Shown piece by piece: positions 12,501-30,500 of a DNA stretch of 64,000 nt (position 1 is its first letter; the number at the start of each line of letters is the position of its first letter). The translations under genes were made by a program, and so were the position numbers. Source of the stretch: Carcharhinus longimanus (lineage: Eukaryota); NCBI GenBank assembly GCA_030264375.1, contig JASCQW010000156.1:19613620-19677619 (forward strand). The letters run 5' to 3'. The notes under the pieces were generated by a model. The model ran no database searches. It worked only from the letters and a program-made list of their open reading frames with translations, and had not been told where the DNA came from.

Positions 12501-15500
12501 AGAATGAGGGAGCTTACACACACATTGAATAGATGAAATTTAGGGAAATTTTTTGATGCAGAGACTTGGAAATACTGGGTAGAATCAGTTCCTGAGTCAG
12601 AGACCATATCAACATTTAATTAGAACAAAGAAATATGGAAATTAGATTGAAATTAGGATATTTTGCTCATGTGGATAAACACCATGTGGACCCTTGAACT
12701 AAATTACTTATTTATGTGTTTTATTTTAATGTAATTGTGTGACCTCTAACCTTGGTGCTTTTACCAGGAAAGATTGTTTGGTTTACTTAGCTTAGAAAAT
12801 GGAATTTCTTCCAATTGATGGGCATTATGAAGCTATTCTCTGCAAATTAGGAATAAAACTGAATGTTTTGTAGGAATTTAAGCCAAATTGGTTTTAATGG
12901 TTTTGTTTTTTTTTGTAGCGAAATGCATTTGCAAATGACACCATTCCTGCAGAGAGCTACATTAGCGCAATCCAGGCTGCACACCTTGGCACGTTGTCCA
13001 ATCAGAGTCTGCCACTTGCTGCCTGCCTGAAGCATATTCTTCTGTCATTGGTCAGGCTTACTGGTGACCTTATTGTGTAAGTCAATAGGATTTTTGTACT
13101 CTATTAGTTCTGAGATTTCCCTTGCCCAATGCCTGACAGCCTCAACTATCATTAATCTGCCTGTGTTGTAGCACCCCTAAAAGTGAAAAATACTGTGCTA
13201 GTAAGCTCTCCATTCTTTGAGCTCTTGTGTATGTGTGCCAAGTATTTCATAAAACTTAAATTTCCACTCAGAATGCTTCTACACCTCTCCATTGCTGTTT
13301 TTGAGCTGATTGCTTAATGGGCAACAGTTCCTCCATTTTACTGCCTACACAAACACAGCATTGTGATCAGAGGGTGGGGGAATAATATTGGGTTGTTGTC
13401 TGCAGTATTATCTTCCCTGACTCTACCCCACCGTCAAAAGAAAGTCTCTTCTTTCTCTCTCTCTCTCTCTTGCTTTTTCTTAGTTTACATTCCAATTTGT
13501 ATGAATCTATTTGTCATTCTGTCACTGTCTTCCAACGTTGTCTATAATTTTGACCCTCTCTTTTCTCTTGCGCTGCTTCCATTNNNNNNNNNNNNNNNNN
13601 NNNNNNNNNNNNNNNNNNNNNNNNNNNNNNNNNNNNNNNNNNNNNNNNNNNNTTCTAATCTCATACCAGGTGGTGTCCTGATGAACTGAACCCTCCACAG
13701 GTTATTCACACGCTGCTGCCATTGCTCTTGGAGACCAGCACTGAAAGCGTGTCTGAAATCAGCTCCACATCATTGGAAAGGATTCTTGGACCTGCAGAAT
13801 CTGATGAGTTCCTTGCACGCGTCTATGAACGACTCATCACAAGCTGCTATAATATAATTGCTAACCATTCTGACCCCAATAGGTAATTAAAGATTTAAAT
13901 TAGTAAAGATTTGCTCGATAATCTTTGATTTTGTAAATTAAGAGAAGTTCTGAATTTATAGCTGCATATATTCTGGGACAAAGGGGACCATAGAATAGTG
14001 GTGTAAGGCAGGATCAGGCTACTTTGTTGGATGATCAGCTATGATCATAATGAATGGTGGAGTAGGCTCAAACAGCCATGTCCTAATCCTGTTCCTATTT
14101 TCTATGTTAGCCAGTTGCTGAAATATCCGCTATAACTGGATAACCATTGTATCAGATTCCCTATCTATATAGCAGTCAATTTTTGTATTGATAAAGCTAT
14201 CAGGTTGACACCTCAAACACTTTATTATTTTTCGCGGGATGTAGATGTCATTGAGTAGGCAGCATTTTTTGCCCCTCTCTAATTGCCCTTGAGCAGTGGT
14301 GAGCCACCATGTTGAACATTGCAGCCCATGTGGTGTAGGTATACCCACAGTGCTATGAGGAAAGGTGCTCTAGGATTTTGACTCAGGAATAGTGATATAG
14401 TTCCAAGTCAGGGTGGTGTTTGGCTNNNNNNNNNNNNNNNNNNNNNNNNNNNNNNNNNNNNNNNNNNNNNNNNNNNNNNNNNNNNNNNNNNNNNNNNNNN
14501 NNNNNNNNNNNNNNNNNNNNNNNNNNNNATTCGGAACAAGTGGCCAATAAAGAGCCAGAATAAGAACATCCATTTGCATGACTGAAAATATGCAACTTAA
14601 CATTTTACTTACAGACTTTATTTAATGGAACTCCTGCTGCTGCATATTTGCACACATTTCTTTAAAGTTTACAACATAACTGGTGAAATGTAACTTCATG
14701 TATACATTCAGCCTACCTTCTTTGAGTGCAAATTCCCTCTGATGTGATTCAAATGAGGGAAAGTCTGCGCGCACACAAGTAGAGCCAAACGTTGAAAGTG
14801 AGGCCAATCTGACTTTCTGCATGGTGTTGTATGTACAGTAAGAAGTCTCAGAACACCAGGTTAAAGTCCAACAGGTTTATTTGATAGTAAACGCCATAAG
14901 CTTTTGGAATACTGTTCCTTCGTCAGGTGAGTGGAAAGTTTTGATCAGAAATAGGGCATATAAAGGCGCACACAGTTTACAGAATCAATATCCCTTGTTT
15001 GATTTTTCATGAGTAATATCGTAATAGTTCCATTATGCACGAATTTCCACAATTATCCCGGACTACACAGCTAATTAATGTTACATATGTTGGTTGTCCC
15101 ATCCAAAGCAATTGAAAAAGCAGTAGCTGAACTCAAATTTTGCTTATCTGATGTTGATGTGGTGGGCTATTTTCACAGCTGTTATGATCTGTTAATGCTA
15201 ATTTTTCATTTTAAAAGTTGTGTATTTTGAGAATGACAAAAGAGCCAAATTTGGTTCCATACTGAAACATATTTGGCTCATGAGTCATAGATTGCCAACT
15301 ACAGTTCTAATTAGTAGAGGAAGGTGCTGTTGAAGAGTCTTTGTGAGTGGCTGTAGTGATTCATATAGATTGTACAGGGCAGTAATGTGTACATCAGCGG
15401 TGGTTGGGATGCCAATCAAGCAACCTTGGTCTTTGGTGTTGAGCTTCTTTGGTGTTGTTGGAGCTACACACATCCTAGCAAGTCTTCCATGACTTATGCT

Positions 15501-18500
15501 TTGTATGTGGTGGATCTTAAATAAGATATGTTCACCCAAACAGTAAATTAACTGCTTTTTTATAAGCTATTTGCTGAGTTTTTTTTTGAGTGTAAATGTT
15601 CTCAAGGTTAGTTAGCAATTTAAACAAAAAAGCAGACCAGATATCTGATTGGATGAATTGGTGGAGCTAAATTTCTAAATCAGAGGCTTGAGTGTTCAAG
15701 CCATCCCGCAGGATGGAGCGCATAAATTTATCTTTCCGCTAGCAGAACAAAGGAAGTACTGTCAGAGCGCTTTCTTTCAGATATGATGTTAGACTAAGGC
15801 CCTGAGTATTTGTTTATAAGACGNNNNNNNNNNNNNNNNNNNNNNNNNNNNNNNNNNNNNNNNNNNNNNNNNNNNNNNNNNNNNNNNNNNNNNNNNNNNN
15901 NNNNNNNNNNNNNNNNNNNNNNNCTTTATACTGATTGGCTTTTTGGTTTCAAAAGTTTGCTGACCCCTGACCTAGGAGGATGAGGGCAGGTGCATAGGAT
16001 CATCACCATGTGCAAGTTCAGACATTCTCCTGACCTACTAGCCAATCAGTACATTGAGAAAGATCTACAATCCTGCACCTAATTAACTATCCATGAGACA
16101 TTGTTACACAAAAATTGATTGCTGTTTATGCTACTATAACACATCAAAGATAATTAATTGAATGTGAAACTACTGTGAGGTTATAAAAGGCATTTTCCCT
16201 GTGAATATGTTTTAAATATTCCATAGTTGGAGTAGCTTGTTTTGGCATTGCATAACTTATTAATCAACATTTTAAATTGTTTGGGGTTGAGTACCTCTAG
16301 AGGGCATCGCAGGAATCTAGCAGAACTAATTTGAACAAGCTCCCTTGTTCCAGATCCAAATTAGTGCAATCATAGGAATCCAGGATTCGAGCCTTATATT
16401 GGGAATAAATGGATTCAGTAAAAATGTGCTGTTTTCGTACAGGTCAGGATTTAAGTAGTGCAGCAAGTCATGATTTCTGATCACATTGAAGCTGGCCTGG
16501 CCAGTATACTCCATAGTTTTTGTAATGTTCCTCAGCATTTCCATATCTTGAGTGCACAGGAAAAGGAGACCTGTGTTACATGGAACATAATTTGTTTTTG
16601 TTGGTTGGGTTTTGTATAGAACATTGCACCGCCAGCCGCATATTGTAAGGTTCACAGGGTATTGGGTTTGGATGAGAATATGGTGTTTGGGGCTTGTGTA
16701 TGTTTCTACTGTGTTACTTCATATAAGTGAAAAGTGAATCTTGTCAACGGGTGACAGACATTTGAGTAACATATTCCAGTTGGATTGAATTTTACATTTA
16801 AAAAATCACACATTTTATAACTGTCTTTCTGCCCAAGACGCAGAGCTTCGGGCAATGCATGTTTCTTAGTGAACAAGAGCTTGTATGCATTTAGCATTAA
16901 AAAGAAAATGGCTTTACCATGTCTTTCCCACAGTGGTTTGGATGAGACTATCTTGGAGGAATGTTTGCAGTATCTGGAGAAGCAACTGGAGAGCAGCCAG
17001 GCACGCAAAGCCATGGAGGAATTCTTCTCTGAACGGTAAAAGGAAGATGCTAAATATGCTGGAGAAGTAAAAGTGATGCAAATGGGGCACTAGGAATGAG
17101 AGGGATTTTGGACTTAAGAGTTCCATTCTAGTTAAATTTTTGGTCCATGTCCCTTTCAGTGGATATTTCCTTCTTTTTAAACCACTGGTACTTATTTCCT
17201 CATCCTGTTTACTTTGGCCGTATCACGGTTTTTATCCTTCTACCTGTTTGAGATATCTGTCCGCAGAGTGTCATGATGAAAATGTTTCTTGTGTATATAA
17301 GTGTGGAGTTGATCCCAGTATCCAGAGTTTTAACGTCATACACAATATCATTAATACATTTAAACGAAAGATTATATTTCTGAGATGATCATACTTGAGT
17401 TTGAAAAAGCTTTCAGAAATATGTGTTGGGTGAATTTTTTGTCCCTCGATAGCCGCCCATGCCTTGTTGATTTATGCTGGTTTAGTAAAGTTGATCNNNN
17501 NNNNNNNNNNNNNNNNNNNNNNNNNNNNNNNNNNNNNNNNNNNNNNNNNNNNNNNNNNNNNNNNNNNNNNNNNNNNNNNNNNNNNNNNNNNNNNNNCTAG
17601 CTTGCTTTCCTGTCTGCTTATCAGCTTTGGTTTACCTTTCTCGTTTGCAGTGGGGAACTAGTACAGATCATGATGGCCACAGCCAATGAGAACCTCTCAG
17701 CTAAATTCTGTAACAGAGTGCTGAAGTTTTTCACAAAACTCTTCCAACTTGGTGAGTGGCATCTTCAGTTTGTTCAGCTGTTAAAGACTAATTATAGTGC
17801 ATGTTACTAACCTGAAAAAAGTGGTGTAAGAATGTTTTGTCATTCGTCACGTTTTTAGATTCTTGGGTTGAATTACATTGATAACTAGATCAGGGTCAGT
17901 GCAGAATGACAAGTAGCTCACTTTGGAGTTTGCACATTCTCCTCATGCCTGCATGGGTATACTCCAGGTGCTCAGGTTTCCACCCACACTCCAAAGATGT
18001 GCGTATTAGATTGATTGACCATGCTAAATTGACTCTAGTGTCAGGGAGATCAGCAGGGTAAATGTGCGGGGTTACGGGAATAGGGCCTGGGTGGGATTGT
18101 GGTTGGTACAAACTCGATGGGCCGAATGGTCTACTGTACTTTGGGGGTTCTATGGTGACCATTGTCGGAAGTGTGTTGATAAAACCAATACTAACGAGAG
18201 TTGTATAGTTTTGTTGTAATGCTGGCTCAGCAAACCAGAAAATCTGTCAACGCTTGAAAGTAGGACAGACAGGAAGAACTGTTTCAATTTATTGTCTTCA
18301 GAATTCTGTTTGTGCTGCGTGCCCCTCAAGATTTTCTTGTACTGTGGGCTCGGGAAGGTCTGCCTTTGGTAGTGCCAGACAGTCCTGCCAATAAAAGGCA
18401 TGATTTGCAAACCAGCAAAATATATTTCTGGGCTGAAATTCATTAAAATATTCCATCTATGGATAGCAGTAATTGAATGTAGGTGTTAAAATTGAACCCA

Positions 18501-21500
18501 TCAATTTCAGTGGGGCTTTGCTAGATCTGGAGAATAACATAACATGTTGTTAGCGCGAGTGGGCGAAACGACCACTACAGACTCAGGGTGAAGTTCAATA
18601 ACGGCACAGCTTTATTTTCTTTTACGTCGACGGAGAAGCGCAGTCAGGACATACAATCGGACTGTCCCGAAAGCGTTCTAACGATCCCTCGCAGCGGGCA
18701 ATAGTTATACCTGAACTTCGGTGTAGTATTCTAATACTAATTTAACAGCACTCGGCCTTAGCCATCCTGTCTTGATGTTTTCAAGTGTAGGGGGAATTGT
18801 TTTAAGTGTGTGTTAATCGTTTTGTCTGATTGGTTGTTAATGGTCTAGAACCTCTGCGGTTTGAACCATAGGTGTGTCATTGATCTGAAAAGAGGTTTGA
18901 GGGACCAGGGACGTTTCTCTAGCTATGCTAATTTGAGGTGTCCCCATGGGTTGTTTGACTGTTGTAGAAGTGCTGATTTTGATGGGGTGGAGATGTGTTT
19001 TTTTTAATTTAGTTCCTGTAGGTGCCATCCTGTCCAGCTTCCCTTGTGTGCTAGCCTTCATTTACATTCTGAAAGCATGCCCTTGCCTGCTAATCTGTGT
19101 CTGATACTTTGTGATTTTTAGTGGAGTCGCTCTGAGTGTATCTTTAGTCTGCTTCCATATCGTGTACCCAATTTCATAAAAATTGTTGTCCGATAACAAA
19201 AGTATGCCGACAGTGTTATAGTAAGTGTGTGCTATGAGTGTGATTCCGAAATTAATGAGGGCACCGTGATATATTTAACTGCCGAGTGGTGTTGCCAGGT
19301 GTTGGCGACCTTGTACTTGAATACTGTCGAGGAATTCTGCTTCCAGATGGCAGCGTTGATGTGTTTGGAATTTGCTATTAGAGCTGTTCTGATGAATTTC
19401 AGCCGACGAGCATTGTAAAAAATGAATGCAACGTTTGAGTTTGACTTTTGCAGTTGAGGTGGTAGCTCAGGGCTTTGTGTGATGTTGGGTGACGGAGTGT
19501 GGTTGTACATCGAGACTTTTGCTTTCCATTGGATCGCGTTGAAGCTGTTGAGTGTTCTTGGAGCTACATCTATTATGGTAGGTCACAGCCACTCATTAAT
19601 TGCACGTTTTAGATGGTGACGATTTTTAGGTGAGGACGATTTTTAGGTAGGCTGATTAATTATTTACACGCTTTCTAGCCTCTAATCGGTTGTTCTGGCC
19701 ACAACAGTTACACAGCTGGAACTTTACAGTTTTGTCATCAAGATCGAACCGAATAATTTTGACAACATTACAATCAGCGATTGCATTGCCAACTTAAACT
19801 AAACTTAGTGGATGAAGGTTAGTTATTTCTCATGAAGCAATTTACTGCCTGGGAATCCTTGGGCCCGAATGTTACTTGTCAATGCTCAGTCCAAACCGGG
19901 AAATCAACAGAACTTGAGATTCCGTTGAACAGCTTGAAAATGTTCATAAAATAAGACTCGCACACTATTTTAGTACATTTTCTAGCCAATCGTTAAATGA
20001 ATAATGAAAAATCTTATTATTAGTGATAATGATCGAGTATCACTGCCTGCTAATTACAGTTGCCTGAACGAAATATTTTCCAATTTAACAGACCGACCAA
20101 CAACACGCAACAACTGAGGACATTGGTTTGCAAGTAAATGGGAGCAAGCACCAACAGTGATTTAGGGCAATGGTTCCAATGATGAAACTTACGAGACGAG
20201 ATGAGACCAGAGGATAATGTATAAGTTTTCCTGTTGTTTTAGTTAAGCAACCCATCCACAATGTTAAATGTATCTAAAAGCAAATTGCAACGAATGATAA
20301 AAATCCGAATTCAAAGGAAATGATGCTGGAAATTTGCTGTTATAGTTTTTCTGATCAATTTCAGGTGATGTAATTGTGATTTTCTAGCATTTCCTTTTAT
20401 GTTAAGAATTACATTGAGTTAAAATGGGATTATTGGAAGAAGAGGGTATCGAAAAGTTGACGCCCTGTTAAGTTACCCGATTCCCTGTCCACGTTGTCTC
20501 GATCTACTCAAGTGGAAAAGTAAAGCAAATTAGTCGTTCCAAACCTCGAGCTGTCCCACAGAACTGCTCCGATTTCAAATAAAGTGTCATTGACCTTCAT
20601 CAGTAATTCGCTTTCTTTTCAGAGAGCGACTTTCCTGTTTAAAATTCCAGTAGATCGCTCTGTATTTAAAATGCATTTGTCCGTAATATTTTGATTTCAC
20701 TCTTACCAAGACGAAATTGATGTAGTGGACTGCTAATGGGATTTAATGATTTCTATTTGAAAGAACATAATTTATTTTCCGGAGCCCTTCCGTCTTGCCG
20801 TTCAATAGTGGTAATATCAAAATAGGAATCTCACTTTTTTTTTTGGGAAACCAGTCACCAACTTGTACTTTCTTTATGAGAAGTAATGGTTCTCGGTAGA
20901 TCTGAGATCAATCGTCATCAGAAGACTGATGGGATCTGCATCCATATAATCCTGCAGAGACCGGGCGAACATTTACCTACTGTGCTGCTGGTAAGCGTGC
21001 ACTATGATTTTGATACTGCAAAATTGATGGCACGGTAACATATTTTATTGTGGGGTGGTGTAGCCTCGGCCTTGCNNNNNNNNNNGGGCCGGGGGGGGGG
21101 GGGGTGGGGGGGGCGGGGGGTAAGTGGTGGTATGCTTGAATGTGGTGGAGGAATTCCGTTCCTGCAGCCCAACAACCATATTGTGGGCATTTGCTTTTGT
21201 AGTTGGTTTGATGAATTCCAGCAAATTAATCTTGTGGAAAATGGCGGAACTGTGTGAGTTTAGCTTGTGGTGTTGAGGCAGTAGGTGGGGAAGTAGGTTG
21301 GCTGACCGCGTGTGGTTGAATATCAATGAGTTTGCTTTCCAATGGATGACGGTGAATTTATTGAATGCTTCTTGAATTATATCCATGATGATTGCTCGAG
21401 GCGTCGCAATAATACTCGTCAATTCTACATTGTAGATGTTGGACAGGATGTTAGGGAGGAGTCGGAATGTACAGAATGTGCATCCGAGCCTCTAATCTGC

Positions 21501-24500
21501 TGTTCCAGCGACAGTATTGATATAACTGACACTATTATGATTATAGCCAAGATGGACCATAAGAATTTTGATAAAGGTGAATTCAGTGATTCTATTGCCA
21601 ATTAATCTCAATGGATGAAGTTATTTTGTTTCTTCTCATGAAGCAGCTTGTGGCCTTACAATTCTCTGGCCAAAATGATGCTTACCATTTGTCAAGCCAA
21701 AGCGGGAAAATAAGGAGGATCTTGGATCCATTCAAGAGCTTGATAATCTAAGAAAACATCCACCACATAGTCCAGTTTCTAATCACTCACTAAATTAAGA
21801 ATGCAAAAATCATATTATTAGCTATAATGATCGACCATTACAGTGTGTTAATTGTATCCAGTTGAATCAAACATTTGCCAAATGAACAGATGAACCAATG
21901 GCATACAGTGATTGATGACATTATTCTAGATAAATGGAAGCAATGGTTAAGAGTGATTGAACTCAATACACAACACGACAATTTACGAGACGACATATGA
22001 CCAACGTGCAAATGGCATTATTTTTACAGTTGTCTTATTTAAGCCACTTCGAAATAATTAGTGGCATTAGGTCAGGTGGAGATTATTAGAAGAAGAAAGC
22101 TACGAAAAATTGGCTTCTGCTATGTTACCTGATCTTCTGCCTATTTTGTCTCGATCTGCTCAAATGGAGAAGTAAAGCAAATTAATCGTTCCAACACTTG
22201 AACCATCCCATAGAACGTGTCAAATTTCAAATAAAACCTCATTGATCTTCGTCAGAAATTCGCTTTCTTTTCAGGTAGCGTCTTTCCTTTTCAAACTTTC
22301 ATTACTATACCTCTCAATTTAAAATGGCTTTTTCCACAGTATTTTGATTTCAGTCTTGCCTAAATTAAATCTGTGCAATGCAAAGCCAATCGGAGTTAAT
22401 GGCTTCCAATTGAAAGAACACTTATTTTCAGGCCCTCCTCCGTTTTGGTGGTTAATAGCGTTACCGTTAAATTCGGACTCCCTTTTATTAAACAACAAAA
22501 CAGCAAATAATGCACTCTTTAGATTCATCCATGAGAAACGTATTTGCGAGCGACAGCAGAATCAATGCTCATTAGGAGTTGGAGGAGATCTCAATCCATG
22601 AATACGTGCAGATCATGCAGTGTCCAAATACCCAGATTGTCTTTTGTGTATGTGTTCTTTGAGATTGGCACAACAACTGTGATGCGTTGGCAATATATTG
22701 TAAGGTCGCTTGTTTTTGGCATGAGTTTGGAAGGCAGACATGAAGGATACCTAAGAATTCAGTACCTACAGGTCAGCATTAACGTGTTTTTAAAATGCTA
22801 TTGGAGTTATTTTGATAAATTTCAGCATACATTTTTTGTGCACAATAATGGAACAGTGTGACTTTGGATTGTGTAGTTGACGGGGAGGTGAGGCATTTCC
22901 GGATTGTTGTCCGACAGAGTGCCGATTAACGCCAAACCGTCTTCGATATTTCGGTTGGCGTTGTCGTTTTTCAGTGCTGTTGGAGTTATGTCTATCAGTG
23001 TGGTTGGAGGCTATTCTAGTTCACTACTGAACTGTGCATTGCAGATCGTCGGCAGTATTTTGGGGAATTTTCGGATGGAAAAGTAGTGATAACTTGTTCC
23101 ACGTTTCCTAGATTCTAATCTATTATTGTAGCCGCCGTATGTATAGGGCCTGACTTGACCTATTGGAGCCTAAGGGCCGGATCCGGGCCTAATATGGATC
23201 CGAGCCCGGAATCCTCGTACCAGCGCCGCTCTACGCTTCTTGCCAGCTCTGATACAATCCGCGCTGCGAGCGGGACGTGGCGCTGCCTGGATGTTCGTAT
23301 CTCTGAACTGCGCATGCGCAGTTCGAAGACAATCGTAGGCATCGCGCCCAGGCGCGCAGCTGCGGCCGTTTCTGCCTTCTGAAAGGTAGCTTCCTGCTGT
23401 GTATCCTGTGTCAGCGCCCCCAGGCGGAACAATTCCAATACAACATCAATAGTTCGCTTTGGAAGGCAGGTCTATGCCAGGCTGCATCTTGTTTTGGTGG
23501 TTCCACCTGAAGGTCCCAGAAGTCATATCAGATACAAGGAGCCTATAAAAAATATGATGCCAGTTGATGTTTCTCTTCTGCCGGAAGCTGAAAGGAAAAC
23601 ACGATTGTGCAAACGTGTTCCCAAAAGAGCTAGAACGAAAGAGAAGCAATTTGAAGATGAATTTAAAGTTGGCAATTATAGCAAATTCTGGACAAAGAAG
23701 TAGTCTTCAAAATTTTGGAGTTTAGAAACAACCATCACTGGGCTGCTTGACTGGTGTTGACGTCAGTGGAACTTTGACAAATGAACATGTTATTGTGATT
23801 CATTAATAAGTTGTGATTTTTTTTAATGATTCGACTCCATTTGTTTTATTAAAATGTGTTTCTACAGGAAGGATCCAGCGAATGAAAAAAGTCCTTGCTT
23901 TGTTTCTATTATTACATAGCTTAAGTGCACCGAGAAACTGATTTGAATGTTAATTAGGCAATATCCATTCACATGAATCCTGTGCCTCTGTTCCTGACTA
24001 TATCTGTGTGGATTTGACTTACGCATATTTAGTTGTTTGTGCGATGTATCATTTAGACCAGTAGGAGGGAAAAAAAAAACAAACAGTAAGCGGAGAGACT
24101 GGCAGTCTGACACAGATCATCCTCTGGGTGGGGGGAGATAGGAGCGCAGTTGGAACTCTGATTGGGTGGGGTACAGGAGGGGGCGCAGATGGATCTCTGG
24201 TTGGGGGGAGGAGGGAGCACAAATGGATCTCTTGCTGGGGGGTGGCCGGGAGGTCCGCTGCCACTTTGCGGGCAATCTCTCCTTCCCACCGGAGGAACGA
24301 ATCTCTCCTCCCGGAGTGGGCGTGCGGCCATGTCATCCCACCAAACCTTCAGGATCAAGTGATTCTTCGTTGAGGAAATGAAGCAAATCTGGCTGATTCC
24401 ACAATGGATCCGCATGAAAACCGGCAACAAGATCAGGGACAACTCCAAGAGGAGACACTGGAGAAGGATCAAGCTGGGCCTCGAAAGGGATACACCATCA

Positions 24501-27500
24501 CTGGTACAATGCCAGCCATAGCCATCTCTCCCGCTCTCTTGCCCCTACAGGGAAGAGTAATCTGTTGCTTATAGCGCAGTTCCGGAACGGACCCAAAGTC
24601 GGTAAAGTGCGATTTGGTGGTAGAGTTGGGCGCATGGTTCATTAAATTGACTTAAATGGATGCAAACACATGTAATTTGCCGGGCCGCCCAATTTCGCCC
24701 AAATCAGTTGTTGGTAAAGTCGCGATCTGCTCGGACTCAGGTGCAAATCGCGTTAATGGCCCAATGCCCAAATTTACCGCGATTTTTCGCCCGACGTTTT
24801 GGACAGGTTTTGGAGAGGAGTCGGATGGGCCAAGATTTGATAAACTCGTTCGAGGTTTCCTTGACTCTAATCAGCTGTTTCAGCCAGAGCATTCATATAG
24901 CTAGCACTGTTCATACCGTAGCCAAGTTCGATTGGCGATGGTATGGACTATTAACCTCAATGCATGAAAATTATGTATTTCTCCTCTAGGCTCAATTAGT
25001 TGGGTCACAATTCTTTGATCCGAATGCTACCTGTCACTTCTCAGTCAAACCTGGAGAATCAGGAGAATTTGATTTCCGTTAAGTATCTTGAAAATGATGA
25101 TAATCTCAGACAAATACACCACTTCCGTAGTGCGTGTTATCGGACAACAAATTTTCTGAAATTAGATATACAAAATGGAAACTAACTAAAGATACACTCA
25201 GAACCCCTCCACTAAAGATCACAAAGGAGCAGATCCAGACAGCCAGGCAAAGGTATGTTTTTAGAATGCAAATAAGGGCTAACATACAAAGGAAGCTGGA
25301 CAGAATGGCACCTATAGAAACTAAATTAAAGTACACCCCTATCTAATCAGCACCACGAACCTAATCATGTAAACCTCTATGGAGACACCTAAGAATTAAC
25401 ATAACTAAGGAAGCTTCCCTGGCTTCACAGACTTCCTAAAGTCAGTCAAACACCAACTGTTCAAACCCTGGAGATTCTAGACCATTGATAAACCCATCAG
25501 ATGGAAACAATTAACACGCACTTAAAAACATTGTTACAATGCTTGAAAACATCAAAACAGGGTGGTCAGGGTCAAATACTGTAAACAAAGCATTAGCATT
25601 TGAATTGTACAATGTATCAAAGTTCAGGTATAACTGTAGCCCATTGCGGCGGGCCTTTAGAGTGCTTTCGGGACAGCTCTGTATATCCTGACTGCACCTC
25701 CGTCGATGTTAAAAATAAAGCTGTACCGCTGTTGAACCTGACTGTGAGTCCGTAGTGGTCATGTCTGCCCACTCGCGCTAACAGTTTCAATTTGCATTGA
25801 GCACAAACTTCCCATTCTAAATTGCACCCATTCCACCACATCATCTAATGGCTTCTGGCGACGTCATCATAGCTATGCTTTCCCAAAAGTACTCATGGTG
25901 CCAGTCTGTCTTTGAAACTGCCAGAGCAGGAACAAAAGTGGAAAACTGGCCTCTCCGAACCTAACATGAGTGGCAGGGAACGCATCTTAAACTTCCCTTT
26001 GTGCTATGTCACATGGGGGTAAAGTGGGAGTGAATGGATGGTAGACGGAAAGTCTGCAATCTCCTCCAAGTCACTTACTCGTGCACTGACCCCAGGGTTA
26101 AGACCAGCAACAGACTATATGATAGTCAAGAAATGCTTGCTGGCTGTCGATCTAACAGTCCCATAGGCTCACAGTTGTTTGGCCACAGGTTGCATGAACC
26201 GAACTTCAATCTTGGTGCAGCTTTAACCCGGCACTGGGACTTTCTCCTGCACTGTCTCCGTTAGCCCATTCTATGTGTTTATCACTCTGAAAGAGTAAAG
26301 GAAAGGCAAGGTGTGGTCTTGGCCTGCTGCTGTAGTAGAGGACACAAGAGAAGGAGNNNNNNNNNNNNNNNNNNNNNNNNNNNNNNNNNNNNNNNNNNNN
26401 NNNNNNNNNNNNNNNNNNNNNNNNNNNNNNNNNNNNNNNNNNNNNNNNNNNNNNNNTAGGCCATCTAGCCCCTTGAGCCTGCCCCGCCATTCAATAAGAT
26501 CATGGCTGATCTGAAGTGGATCAATTCCACTTAACCGCTTGCTCCCCATAACCCTTAATTCCCTTATCGATCAGAAATCTATCTACCTGTGACTTAAACA
26601 TATTCAACGAGGTAACCTCCACCACTTCAATGGACAGAGAATTCCAGAGATTCACTACCCTCTGAGAGAAGAAGTTCGTCCTCAACTCTGGTCTAAACTA
26701 ACTCCCCCTTACTTTGAGGCTGTGCCCTCTAGTTCTGGTCTCCTTTCTAAGTGGAAAGAATCTCTCTACCTCTATCCTATCTAGCCCCTTCATTATCTCA
26801 TATGTCTCTATAAGATCACCCCTCATCCTTCTAAACTTCCAACAAGTACAGGCTCAATCTCTCCTCATAAGCCAACCCCCTCATCTCTGGTATCAACCTG
26901 GTGAACCTTCTCTGTACTCCCAATATATCCTTTTGCAAATAAGGGGATCAAAATTGCACACGGTTCATTCATTGTAAACTTCAGAGTCAAGCTCATGCAA
27001 TTCTGTGAAGCTGTATTTCCAGATACAATTCTGAGAGTAGTCGAAAAACATTTTCCTTTTTAAACCTTACCAGATGATAGCAAAACATGTGAGATATTTG
27101 GGCAGTTTTGTTCAATACCAGTAACTGGAAGGTGTAGACTTCAGCCTATTCTCTGGTAACTAAAGTCGTAGAAATTACTGAGCATAAAAAAAACTTGTGG
27201 CGGTTACTGACTTGCACTAATATCCAACTGCACCGCTTGTGATCAATTACACTGGCGAATTTAAACCATCTGCTGGCATGAAGGTAACTTGATTACTGGG
27301 ACCCACTACTGAAAACTGTATTTCTAATCAGTTTAATGACACCGTTATGCCACAGGAAGAAGTCATTTGTCCATTGTGTCTGTGCGAGCTCTTAGAGCTA
27401 TCCAGTTCTCCAGCTCTTTCCCCATAGCCTTGCAGATTTTCCCCTTCGAGCATTTATCCAATTCTTTATTGAAAGTTACTGTTGCTGGTTGGTAGTAATG

Positions 27501-30500
27501 GTTAATTTGATGCTAACCTGTTGTTGTCTCTTCTTTAGCCAAGTTGGAGAAGGAGTCTGTACTGTGTTACTCAACACACTTATCCCCATGGCAGCAGAAA
27601 TGTTGTCCAATGGTGATGGCACAGGATTCCCAGAACTCATGGTTGTTATGGCGACATTGGCCAGTGCTGGCCAGGGAGGAGGACACTTGCAGCTTCACCG
27701 TGCAGCTGTAGACTGGTTAGGGAAATGGTGAGTATGTGATACTAACTGGGTGAGTGATTACAATACATCAGTCTATGAAAAAGCCTTGAGTTGAATAGTT
27801 CAAATTAGAGTTTTGGCATTGATTTTAATTAAATGTTTTGAATGTGTTGTAAAACATTAATGTTTTAAATTGGATCAAATTTCTTGTGGGTGGGAGTTGT
27901 GTTTATTTGTTCCAAATTTGAAATGTTCAATTTCTCTGTGAATAGTTATGTCTTTGTTTTTCAGTAAAAAATATCTTTCCCAGAAGAATGTCTTGGAGAA
28001 GGTGGGAGCAAATGTAACCCAGGGGAAGGTGAGTTGAGGGGAGATTTTAGGGTTGTGTTAAATTGGTGTGTGCTTAAATCCATAATCGCTGACTTTGCAA
28101 ATAATTAATTTTTTTGAATCGTCTCCGTTTTTCTGCAACTTGCCCAAGTAAAAACTTGGCCTTTTGTTACTGTCTTTATGGGGTATGAACTGGAAATGGA
28201 GCATACAATATGATTATACCTGTGAGCAGTTTGAACATACGTGGTTTTGACTCCCAGTTTAACATTTTTATCTTGTGCAGCATGTAGGCATGCTTGACTG
28301 TGCTTGTCACATCATGTCCTATCTTGCCGATGTCATGAATGCAATGCGACAGAACAGCGGGCAGGGATCAACGCACCTGGTAGTGGATGGTGAGGAAAGA
28401 GCAATTGAGGTTGATTCCGATTGGGTAGAAGATCTGGTTGTAGAAGAAGAGGATTCTCAAGCAGAGGACTCAGTGAGTAGTTTGCAAGCCTGCTAAATAG
28501 TTTTATTCAATGTATTTGTAAACTGATAGGAACATCATAGACGGATTGCAGACATAATGAGTGGATTTTATTCCCCCTGCAGGATGAAGATTCCTTGTGT
28601 AACAAGCTCTGCACATTCACAATTACGCAGAAGGAGTTCATGAACCAGCACTGGTGAGAACATTGATCCTTCTGTTAAGCTGATGGTGTGTGAGCTTCAG
28701 GAGTTATCCTTCAGTTAGAGTGATGTAGGGATGGAGGATTTAAGTCAGTCAGAATAATCCCAGTGTGACAATCTCTCCCCATTCTCCTTGGCCCTAATCC
28801 CTCTAGAATGGAAGTATCATCAATCTAAGAGCTACAGTGGTTCAGGATGAAGGTCTTCTGTCCTCAGGATAACTACCATTATGTAACGCTCTTTTACAGC
28901 CTCAGGATGCTCCAAAGCACTTTACAATCAAATAAATTCCTTGGCAGTATAAATACAGTTGTAATGTAGGAAACATGGCAGTCAATGTGCGTACAGCAGG
29001 TTTCCACAAACAGCAATGAGGTAATAATCAGATCATCTTTTTAAGTGTTGATGGTCAAGGAATGAAAATTGGCCAGGGTAGTGAGGAGAACTCCCCTTCA
29101 AAATAGTGCCTTGGAATCTTTTACGTTTACTTGAACGCAGGCAAGAAATGGCTTAAAGCCCACTTGAAAGATGGCACCTCCGATAATTCAGCAATCCCTT
29201 GCTGAACTTAGATTATGTCATTGTCTGTGGAGTGGAACTTGAACATGTGGCCCTGTGACTCACGTAGGAAGACTACAATTAAATTCCTGCTGGTACCTGA
29301 CAGCTAGGAAGATAGGCAATAAATATGGTCTTTGTGCAGGTTCCGTAATCAAATTTTAAACTAAACAATTAACTTCCTGTATCAGAAATGATAACAGAAA
29401 TAAGAATCAGTGATAAATTTCATAGTTTTGTACATCAGAGTGAAATTGGCAGATGATGTGTTCAGATGATTAATGCGTTCTTGCAAATACAGCTATCATT
29501 TAAAATGTGCTGTTGTCATTGGTTCTGCCATTGTCATGTCCTGAAGCATGCTTCTCTCAGCATAGAACATCAAATGGAATGTTCTGCACTGGTTTTGATG
29601 ATGGGAGAAGGTCACTTGACAGCACACTGTTTCCCCACTATTTGGAATAGAAACTGTTCTGTGATCTATTCTTTATTAAAGGCATAAATCACAAAGCATG
29701 TATAACATCAAATCTGTTTTAAAATGGCGTTTGTGCGAGATTAAGCATGACTGTGAATGGGAGAGGATGAACTGATTCAATTTAATCTTCTGTTTCAGGT
29801 ATCACTGTCACACCTGTAAAATGGTGGAAGGAGTAGGAGTTTGCACCATTTGTGCTAAAGTCTGTCACAAGGATCATGAGATTTCTTATGCCAAGTATGG
29901 ATCATTCTTCTGTGACTGTGGAGCAAAGGAAGACGGAAGTTGTCAAGTATGTGATGAAAATAATTTGTACTGAAGGCAATAATGAAACCAGTTTAGTGCT
30001 TCGTTGTACCATATGTCAGTCAATGTTTATGCAAATTAATTTGGTGACCACATTTCAGATTCTATTTGTATCATTATTCACGCGTCTTTAAAGCCCATGT
30101 TATTTGTGCCTACTGTCTGGCCCACTCCACTCCACCTCCAGTGTTCCAAGTCTGTGTTTACTTTTCCCACCACATCTGTTCCAAACTCTTTCACTGTGAT
30201 TCCTTTACCTGTCCACCCCAGTCAATGACCTTCCCTATGAAGCACACAATCTTTTTCTCAAACTTTCCCAAGTTAGCCATTCCACATACCTTTCCTTTGG
30301 CCCATCTCTTGTAGGGCTGCCTGTCTTGGACACTTGCAACTGTTAAAAACAGAAAATCTATAGCGAAGACTTCTGCACCTGAGCCACAGGATCACTTCAG
30401 TACTACCCCAGTTCCATCTTTCAACCCTGTTCCACATTTGTTACTTTTTGATTAGATTAACTATAGACATGGCTTCAGCTTTCATATATGTTCTACTATC

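Follow-up and report, generated by a model that had tools for sequence, protein, structure and literature searches.

The locus studied here raises the question of how a CpG-rich block of decayed transposon DNA came to lie in an intron of UBR4. The window, by which we mean the whole 64,000-nt stretch of the Carcharhinus longimanus assembly that was analysed, carries this block between two LTR-like repeats (Table 1). On the basis of sequence comparisons of its borders and relatives, we believe that the block was very probably placed in the intron by chimeric assembly joins at these two solo LTRs.

Table 1. Features of the block and its surroundings in the window
Feature	Position	Strand	Remarks
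UBR4 exon upstream of block	17649..17756	+	residues 403-438 of bird UBR4 P0010, tblastn 97%
Solo LTR-like repeat, subfamily 2 (TGTTA...TAACA), CpG-retaining	18548..19198	-	strand inferred from AATAAA in other copy
Array unit A	19199..20865	+	decayed LINE 3' end on minus strand (to ~19916) and ~0.75 kb non-LINE spacer
Array unit B	20866..22520	+	contains G-run and 10-N gap at 21076-21085
Array unit C, partial	22521..23144	+	LINE 3' end, minus strand
Non-autonomous TIR element	23145..24802	+	intronless MRPL55 ORF (23383-23703) and RPL39 fragment (~24333-24485)
Array unit D, partial	24803..25134	+	in-register continuation on unplaced contig C7720
Solo LTR-like repeat, subfamily 1, with CpG decay	25135..25783	+	
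CpG-poor flank	25784..26356	.	ends within dispersed repeat at 100-N gap; candidate UBR4 DNA only
Repeat copy where window resumes after gap	26457..26578	.	94% identical to repeat after displaced UBR4 exon, C190
Next UBR4 exon in window	27543..27725	+	exon between 17756 and here missing

Structure of the array units

Four tandem units of decayed LINE fragments, all in one orientation, had been claimed by the first-pass annotation, and they are indeed present, with pairwise identities of 60-65% by gapped blastn. A single profile of ordinary LINE copies matches all four on the minus strand (19338-19916; 20933-21045 and 21424-21707; 22564-23154; 24800-25057) and also matches the intronic copies at 14213-14426 and 15319-15514, which agrees with the earlier proposal that the units and the copies near 14220-14425 and 15285-15500 derive from the same LINE. 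The units had been equated with the 3' ~1.3 kb of that LINE, but the LINE-derived portion is only ~0.8-0.9 kb, about half of the ~1.65-kb unit, and the other ~0.75 kb has no match outside the array in the 1.43 Mb of fetched DNA. With its limits corrected, unit C stops at ~23144 and unit D begins at ~24803, the interval being filled by a separate TIR element. The block is without a long ORF, and no viral or transposase ORF was found in it. The L2/CR1 clade named by the first-pass annotation is a putative assignment, since four ORFs from ordinary LINE copies, of which the 3' end only was fetched, gave no Pfam match. The ~40 aligned units held no run of at least 6 columns at 90% conservation that might mark a hidden exon or motif. 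The block is single-copy in the assembly, its 300-nt windows finding best matches at 65-76% (plus genome searches).

CpG retention and divergence

CpG retention in the units was confirmed: CpG observed/expected (o/e) is 0.76 for 19199-25134, with a maximum of 0.37 among 46 equal-sized windows outside, and the individual units (A 0.83, B 0.64, C 0.86, D 0.73) stand far from the 0.17 of ordinary LINE copies. The claim that the units are far more diverged than ordinary copies was overstated. They lie at K2P distances of 0.42-0.49 from ordinary LINE copies, but those copies are already 0.34 apart from one another (73.1% identity, 55 pairs); A and B differ by 0.40 (68.9% identity, 120 transitions and 155 transversions), and the two intronic copies lie at 0.25-0.28 from ordinary copies. 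The divergence of the units is thus only modestly above that of ordinary LINE copies.

The borders of the block are two unlike solo LTRs

The repeats bordering the block are inverted, only 73.9% identical and of different subfamilies, whereas an LTR-bounded element would be expected to have a direct, near-identical pair. Their family has the TG...CA ends, 4-bp duplication and poly(A) signal of solo LTRs; no internal region was found for it, and the parent element may be of Gypsy or ERV type. In the flanks of 50 copies only SINE or LINE pieces, and no PBS/PPT-like sequence, adjoin the junctions. Identification of the two inverted repeats as solo LTR-like copies of two subfamilies excluded a TIR element or a Polinton-like identity for the block. 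In composite transposons and LTR-mediated gene capture, too, DNA of host-like character is flanked by a pair of repeats from a single family; the block differs in its inverted, 74% identical LTRs, its lack of an outer duplication and its lack of a PBS/PPT-like flank.

A duplication of 4 bp with at most one mismatch is the family norm, found in 22 of the 49 flanked copies; of the 27 without it, two show a 5-bp one. Yet the outer ends of the block have none (the outer 4-mers, atgt and gttt, differ), and in the window neither LTR is flanked by its own duplication. The two also differ in CpG state: the left LTR keeps 19 CpG sites, up to its outer end, with 2 decayed, and the right LTR keeps 11 with 9 decayed (9/20) although it adjoins undecayed array DNA.

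We considered whether this LTR family captures host DNA. A direct partner copy lies within 10 kb on either side of 10 of the 18 copies examined, and the outer 4-mers match in 9 of these 10 pairs; a further pair lies on C119. However, a 100-N gap separates the partners in all 10 pairs, and the partner is the top match of its own mate in just one of 10, most partners being no closer to each other than to other copies. For these reasons the capture reading was rejected, and such pairs are likely chimeric instead.

The block continues in register on other contigs

The same unit builds a ~115-kb tandem array on the chromosome-scale contig C81 (92,989,341-93,104,911), with 67 profile matches on one strand and a CpG o/e of 0.70. 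The nearest relatives of units A-D lie outside the block: unit A is sister to the C81 unit at 93,019,671 (support 99/97) and unit B to that at 93,021,237 (99/96), the first two units to the right of the gap at C81:93,013,364-93,018,433.

Two further contigs fit to the edges of the block. An array piece on C109 stops where the block starts, with an overlap of 0-4 nt on 9 of 14 C81 units (4-mers aacg/aaag), and C7720 starts where the block stops; measured on 25 units, this second overlap is 0-4 nt on 22 (tgcg/tgtg). The 4-mers at both joins resemble target-site duplications. At unit position ~22192 the array on C7720 gives way to a repeat head, and on C81 it is taken up again at ~22200, after a SINE on the right edge of the gap. 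A 12-nt overlap of C7720 with another gap edge, C81:93,087,737, was dropped: its position is within a repeat, and the phase of the array does not agree there.

In the model that we propose, tandem amplification of an old LINE end and the DNA flanking it would have built the array, and two LTRs would have inserted into it independently, producing a 4-bp duplication apiece. From these array LTRs the assembler would have crossed into related LTR copies elsewhere. The true position of the block is probably the gap C81:93,013,364-93,018,433, although this gap is estimated at only 5,070 N and the three pieces with their LTRs come to ~12 kb.

The left LTR is not neatly explained by a simple one-copy chimera. 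Its best match is the C109 copy that adjoins the neighbouring array piece; the two have 9 rare variants in common along their length, but their longest identical run is 51 nt, and the 100%-identical stretch that a simple chimera predicts between the window and C109 LTRs was not found beyond this. For such a chimera the switch would have to be close to the outer end, or one outside copy would have to be CpG-retaining as well. In the last 152 nt of the left LTR there is only 1 near-private variant, compared with 26 in the part preceding them. This would agree with a late switch, but 4 of 28 other copies also hold one or none there. A search for the remaining halves expected at the two outside LTR sites did not identify them: of its pattern matches (11 and 6), none was on C156 and none was linked to the displaced-exon piece described below.

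The UBR4 interval is scrambled in the assembly

Residues 439 to ~503 of P0010 have no match in the window by tblastn. The missing exon was found at C190:113,925,778-113,925,972, on a 3,379-bp piece bounded by two 100-N gaps; a second missing stretch, P0010 142-171, coincides with a 598-N gap. That an expected exon is misplaced on a gap-bounded piece shows that the assembly is scrambled in the UBR4 interval. The exon could, even so, have dropped out of the sequence at the 100-N gap (26357-26456) next to a genuine block. As a consequence, UBR4 appears to lack an exon in this assembly although it does not.

A real transfer, in which recombination between LTR copies or movement of a composite element brought the LTR-array-LTR slice into the intron, where it either stayed unmethylated or arrived recently, appears improbable to us. 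Both borders of the block are exact LTR ends, the left LTR retains CpGs along its full length, the contig from 17597 to 26356 holds just a 10-N gap, and the outer 4-mers are identical at 2 of 4 positions, all of which would suit such an event. Against it, the block has no outer duplication, the C109 piece would require a separate event of its own, an exon belonging to this interval has ended up on a different contig, and all 10 similar LTR-DNA-LTR cases contain a 100-N gap. Furthermore, the assembly has no source copy of the block, yet both neighbouring pieces retain an LTR, and neither a donor nor sister insertions of the same cargo, as expected of a mobile element, appeared among matches of 65-76%. 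More generally, LTR- or SINE-bounded islands of odd composition in this assembly may be chimeric joins.

A CpG-retaining domain surrounds the C81 array

On C81, sampled pieces from 92.10 to 94.30 Mb delimit a domain of ~2.2 Mb (~92.1-94.3 Mb) in which CpG o/e is mostly 0.5-0.8, compared with 0.22-0.45 outside it (86-92.0 and 94.5-98 Mb), and this raised CpG level extends to ordinary SINEs, LINEs and LTRs over about 2 Mb. The domain is transposon-derived and nearly gene-free in our samples: among the 140 longest of 285 ORFs from 559 kb, about a quarter of the domain, Pfam matches were confined to seven RVT_1 fragments, one integrase zinc-finger fragment and one Arm_3 fragment, and no host gene family was seen. 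There was no Rfam match in 12 loci (94 kb) and no tRNA in 60 domain loci.

CpG o/e and CpG decay in LTR copies suggest that the domain is likely germline-unmethylated. Non-CpG rare substitutions number 153/3437 in 6 LTR copies with CpG-rich flanks and 278/10536 in 18 with CpG-poor flanks (p = 0.0005), with transition/transversion counts of 82/71 and 183/95. With groups assigned from flank CpG, several domains pooled and insertion ages uncontrolled, non-CpG substitutions are about 1.7-fold higher in domain-resident copies. CpG retention and extra divergence are whole-domain properties, which probably stem from a lasting absence of germline methylation combined with a higher non-CpG substitution rate. 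The unmethylated, faster-evolving context proposed by the first-pass annotation is hence supported in substance, but its setting is a chromosomal domain on C81 and not a mobile or viral vehicle.

An evolution of the units within a virus or some other extrachromosomal carrier is largely refuted, and we regard it as extremely improbable. It drew on the CpG retention and on the excess of transversions over transitions between A and B, but the block has no viral or long ORF and no outer duplication, its LTRs belong to different subfamilies, the domain ORFs are those listed above, and ordinary SINEs, LINEs and LTRs share the CpG state across the domain.

Comparison with known systems

Human germline 'methylation deserts' reportedly tie low germline methylation to structural mutability, in a study on which a comment is said to have been published; the C81 signal differs in being point substitution in LTR copies. 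The LoDs (large hypomethylated domains) found in male germ cells of the mouse span 10 kb to ~9 Mb (PMC3859323) and resemble the C81 domain in size class, in their association with duplicated DNA and in low methylation, which on C81 is suggested by CpG retention. LoDs were delimited from methylation data and contain families of germ-cell genes; no host gene family was seen in our C81 samples. Like LoDs and the centromeric hypomethylated extension domains (CHEDs) of apes, C81 has a large duplicated region with CpG retention, ~2.2 Mb plus the 115-kb array. CHEDs and structurally divergent regions are CpG-rich, structurally dynamic and repeat-rich with less CpG erosion, but are described as young or satellite-adjacent and transient (PMC13308097), whereas C81 units 20-40% diverged still retain CpGs, which implies a long-lived state. 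In the part of the literature searched, no such domains or arrays were found for sharks.

Flamenco-type uni-strand piRNA clusters are regions of transposon fragments in one polarity. The C81 array shares this polarity, which results from tandem duplication, but the domain outside it has no antisense bias (56 plus, 58 minus with five probes). A role of the source array or its domain as a piRNA cluster, a reading of function compatible with misplacement, seems unlikely to us. The domain is transposon-derived, CpG-retaining, fast-changing and, as far as sampled, nearly gene-free, and the elephant shark has piRNA pathway genes including Piwil4 (PMC7618676). However, the units are 64-68% identical to fetched ordinary LINE copies, likely too far for targeting, no strongly conserved block runs through the ~40 aligned units, and axolotl clusters have a median length of 10 kb, far short of 2 Mb. 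Nor is there support for the further suggestion of a portable piRNA module that shares the transcription of the host intron, as the block most likely lies outside the UBR4 intron, and for the same reason 'antisense' has no known reference strand. We consider very improbable a scheme in which sharks keep several long-lived, multi-megabase, germline-unmethylated, faster-mutating domains whose transposon macro-arrays would serve as small-RNA sources, with outward-facing LTR pairs carrying slices into genes, still unmethylated.

With chimeric placement as our preferred reading, the remaining interest lies in the 2-Mb likely unmethylated region of C81 and not in the block in UBR4. If methylation data agree, a slowly evolving vertebrate lineage would have megabase compartments without CpG decay and with higher non-CpG mutation, and LTR copies inside and outside such domains would offer a direct test of the effect of germline chromatin on mutation rate and spectrum.

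The TIR element between units C and D

The MRPL55 and RPL39 sequences within the TIR element were identified by Pfam (PF09776 and PF00832). The element has 71 matches genome-wide, and its left end is common to 9 of 9 loci. The right TIR is absent from the window copy; the TIR itself is visible in loci L086 and L087.

Array units and their source

The window, whose host gene is UBR4, contains four units, A to D, and comparison within it bears out the first-pass annotation that they share one orientation. A profile built from 28 ordinary copies matched the LINE 3' end in each of the four units, always on the minus strand, as had been proposed, although the LINE makes up only about half of a unit; the remaining ~0.75 kb had no match outside the array in 1.43 Mb of DNA, and no conserved block was found within the array unit. 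The claim of CpG retention stood: observed/expected (o/e) CpG over 18548-25783 is 0.73 (flanks, 0.31 and 0.23), and for the block alone 0.76, where 46 stretches outside it reach no more than 0.37 and ordinary LINE copies have 0.17. The units had also been called exceptionally diverged; their divergence is raised (K2P of A versus B 0.40, against 0.34 among ordinary LINE copies) but not extreme, the units lying at 0.42-0.49 from ordinary copies and the two intronic copies of the window at 0.25-0.28.

Within the assembly (2.68 Gb, 68,774 contigs), unit A as query led to a match cluster on contig C81, an array with 67 profile matches, all on one strand, with a CpG o/e of 0.70 and including 18 kb of N. 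A tree of 25 unit cores makes A the sister of one C81 unit and B the sister of the adjacent one (99/97 and 99/96) rather than grouping A with B; both sisters lie right of one gap in the C81 array. The assembly holds no second copy of the block, the best matches being 65-76% identical, and four further small array pieces, on C109, C27, C190 and C7720, each end at a repeat or gap. The C109 piece adjoins the LTR that best matches the left LTR (91%) and ends, in unit position, where the block starts: the two overlap by 0-4 nt when placed on 9 of the 14 C81 units compared, with the 4-mers aacg/aaag. C7720 opens with the final 66 nt of a subfamily-1 LTR, then takes up the array from the block end, to within 0-4 nt for 22 of the 25 units compared (4-mers tgcg/tgtg). 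Since the piece ends and block ends correspond on both sides, piece, LTR, block, LTR and piece form a single array stretch, into which two LTRs would have inserted independently of each other. The far end of C7720 matches the right edge of the same C81 gap in repeat type and unit phase.

Coordinates of features in the window and on other contigs
Feature	Location	Remarks
Left LTR	window 18548-19198	subfamily 2
Unit A	window 19199-20865	
Unit B	window 20866-22520	
Unit C	window 22521-23144	
TIR element	window 23145-24802	between units C and D; MRPL55 and RPL39 sequence; unrelated to array units; also L081-L089
Unit D	window 24803-25134	
Right LTR	window 25135-25783	subfamily 1
Piece with displaced UBR4 exon	C190:113,925,475-113,928,853	3,379-bp piece flanked by 100-N gaps
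C81 array	C81:92,989,341-93,104,911	
Gap in C81 array	C81:93,013,364-93,018,433	
C81 domain	C81 ~92.1-94.3 Mb (~2.2 Mb)	edges mapped to ~0.1-0.2 Mb
Promoter-like stretch	C81:93,087,400-93,087,636	CpG- and GC-rich, within array, beside gap; candidate start site, should the array be transcribed
Arm_3 match	L058:873-1325 (C81 ~93.121 Mb)	within domain; possibly an importin-alpha retrocopy fragment
C190 array piece	C190:34,992,225-34,994,050	between two identical ~85-bp stretches starting at a G-run; 100-N gap
LTR-DNA-LTR arrangements	L201-L236; C119:11,208,977-11,218,323	matching outer 4-bp duplication; 100-N gap inside each
Further stretches rich in CpG (o/e 0.5-0.9), surrounding LTR copies	C119 ~7.3, 7.5, 9.6, 10.3, 11.2 Mb; C27 ~121.6; C61 ~122.6; C190 ~111.6; C132 ~119.2 Mb	C27 and C61 stretches no more than about 2 Mb from contig end
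Repeat head, ~190 nt	L070:2116-2305	also L065, L061, L277, L126, L268, L149
Open frame	C109:4,356,922-4,358,034	371 aa

Probable misplacement of the block

The block had been read as a mobile module. It is real sequence that most likely sits in the wrong place, not a mobile or viral module, and we hold its misplacement in the window to be highly probable. The inverted repeats that border it come from one ~650-bp repeat family (TGTTA...TAACA; ~900 first-look candidates per genome search) but from different subfamilies, with 74% identity between them. Many copies of the family are solo with a 4-bp duplication. Neither LTR of the window, checked singly, has this duplication, nor has the pair an outer one (atgt and gttt differ), and the right LTR is CpG-decayed at 9 of 20 sites beside undecayed array DNA.

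The assembly is scrambled at UBR4. Residues 439 to ~503 of a bird UBR4 protein have no match in the window, though the neighbouring exons match; one other short stretch without a match there coincides with a 598-N gap. The missing exon lies on C190, and the intron downstream of it runs into a repeat that shares 94% identity with the copy from which the window resumes, after a gap, at 26457. Gene models built on this assembly will lack this exon. A real transfer of the block into UBR4 is improbable in our view, although the exon could derive from the gap at 26357-26456 and the block still be real. The left LTR retains CpG up to its outer end and has 9 rare variants in common with the C109 copy, and no identical run between the two exceeds 51 nt, so a single mid-LTR switch does not fit neatly; a search for the missing halves of the outside LTR sites did not find them.

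The pattern extends across the assembly. Among 49 LTR copies with flanks (one contig-edge copy excluded), 27 lack the 4-bp duplication, two of these having a 5-bp one. A direct partner copy lies within 10 kb in 10 of 18 copies examined; the outer 4-mer matches in 9 of the 10 pairs and a 100-N gap separates the partners in all 10, as would be expected of a chimeric contig set beside its true neighbour. The LTR-DNA-LTR arrangements are likely chimeric contigs too; if true, they would represent an LTR family that carries host DNA. The C190 array piece shows the same chimera pattern as at the LTRs, at a low-complexity site.

The C81 domain

The array belongs to a domain with CpG o/e mostly of 0.5-0.8, nearly without genes in the quarter sampled. 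LTR copies with CpG-rich flanks have mostly lost 1-3 of ~21 CpG sites (one copy, 6), and those with CpG-poor flanks 3-12. Non-CpG rare substitutions reach 4.45% in 6 copies with CpG-rich flanks, pooled from several domains, versus 2.64% in 18 with CpG-poor flanks (p = 0.0005; insertion age uncontrolled), and transversions are commoner in the former. A lasting absence of germline methylation together with a raised local mutation rate is the likely cause. With methylation judged here from CpG, the domain would work like mouse LoDs, as described in parts of PMC3859323, and like the ape CHEDs or divergent regions, as described in parts of PMC13308097. No shark report of such domains was found in the literature, supplements aside. 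About 10 of the 49 LTR sites fall inside the further CpG-rich stretches, which are probably more domains of this type, and the C81 domain makes a reasonable starting point for scanning CpG across the genome.

A viral vehicle, one of the origins first suggested, is very unlikely: the 140 longest of 285 domain ORFs yielded matches to transposon fragments only, plus one to Arm_3. The piRNA role also suggested is a prediction that we consider doubtful; piRNA genes are present in sharks, according to sections of PMC7618676, and transposon pieces outside the array show no strand bias (56/58). No tRNA or Rfam families were found in the scanned loci.

Other elements

The TIR element is non-autonomous, with GGGCCCGATTTTACCAA ends visible in L086 and L087, and carries an MRPL55 ORF without introns and an RPL39 fragment. 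Its cargo has 71 protein matches genome-wide, several frames being open. Judged by its sequence, it is a pack-type transposon that would spread captured mRNA pieces. At least two copies of the ~190-nt repeat head stand immediately before a SINE body, where they take the place of its usual start; Rfam gave no match to the head among the scanned loci. The open frame on C109 may be an NLR (NACHT-LRR) exon, which it resembles.
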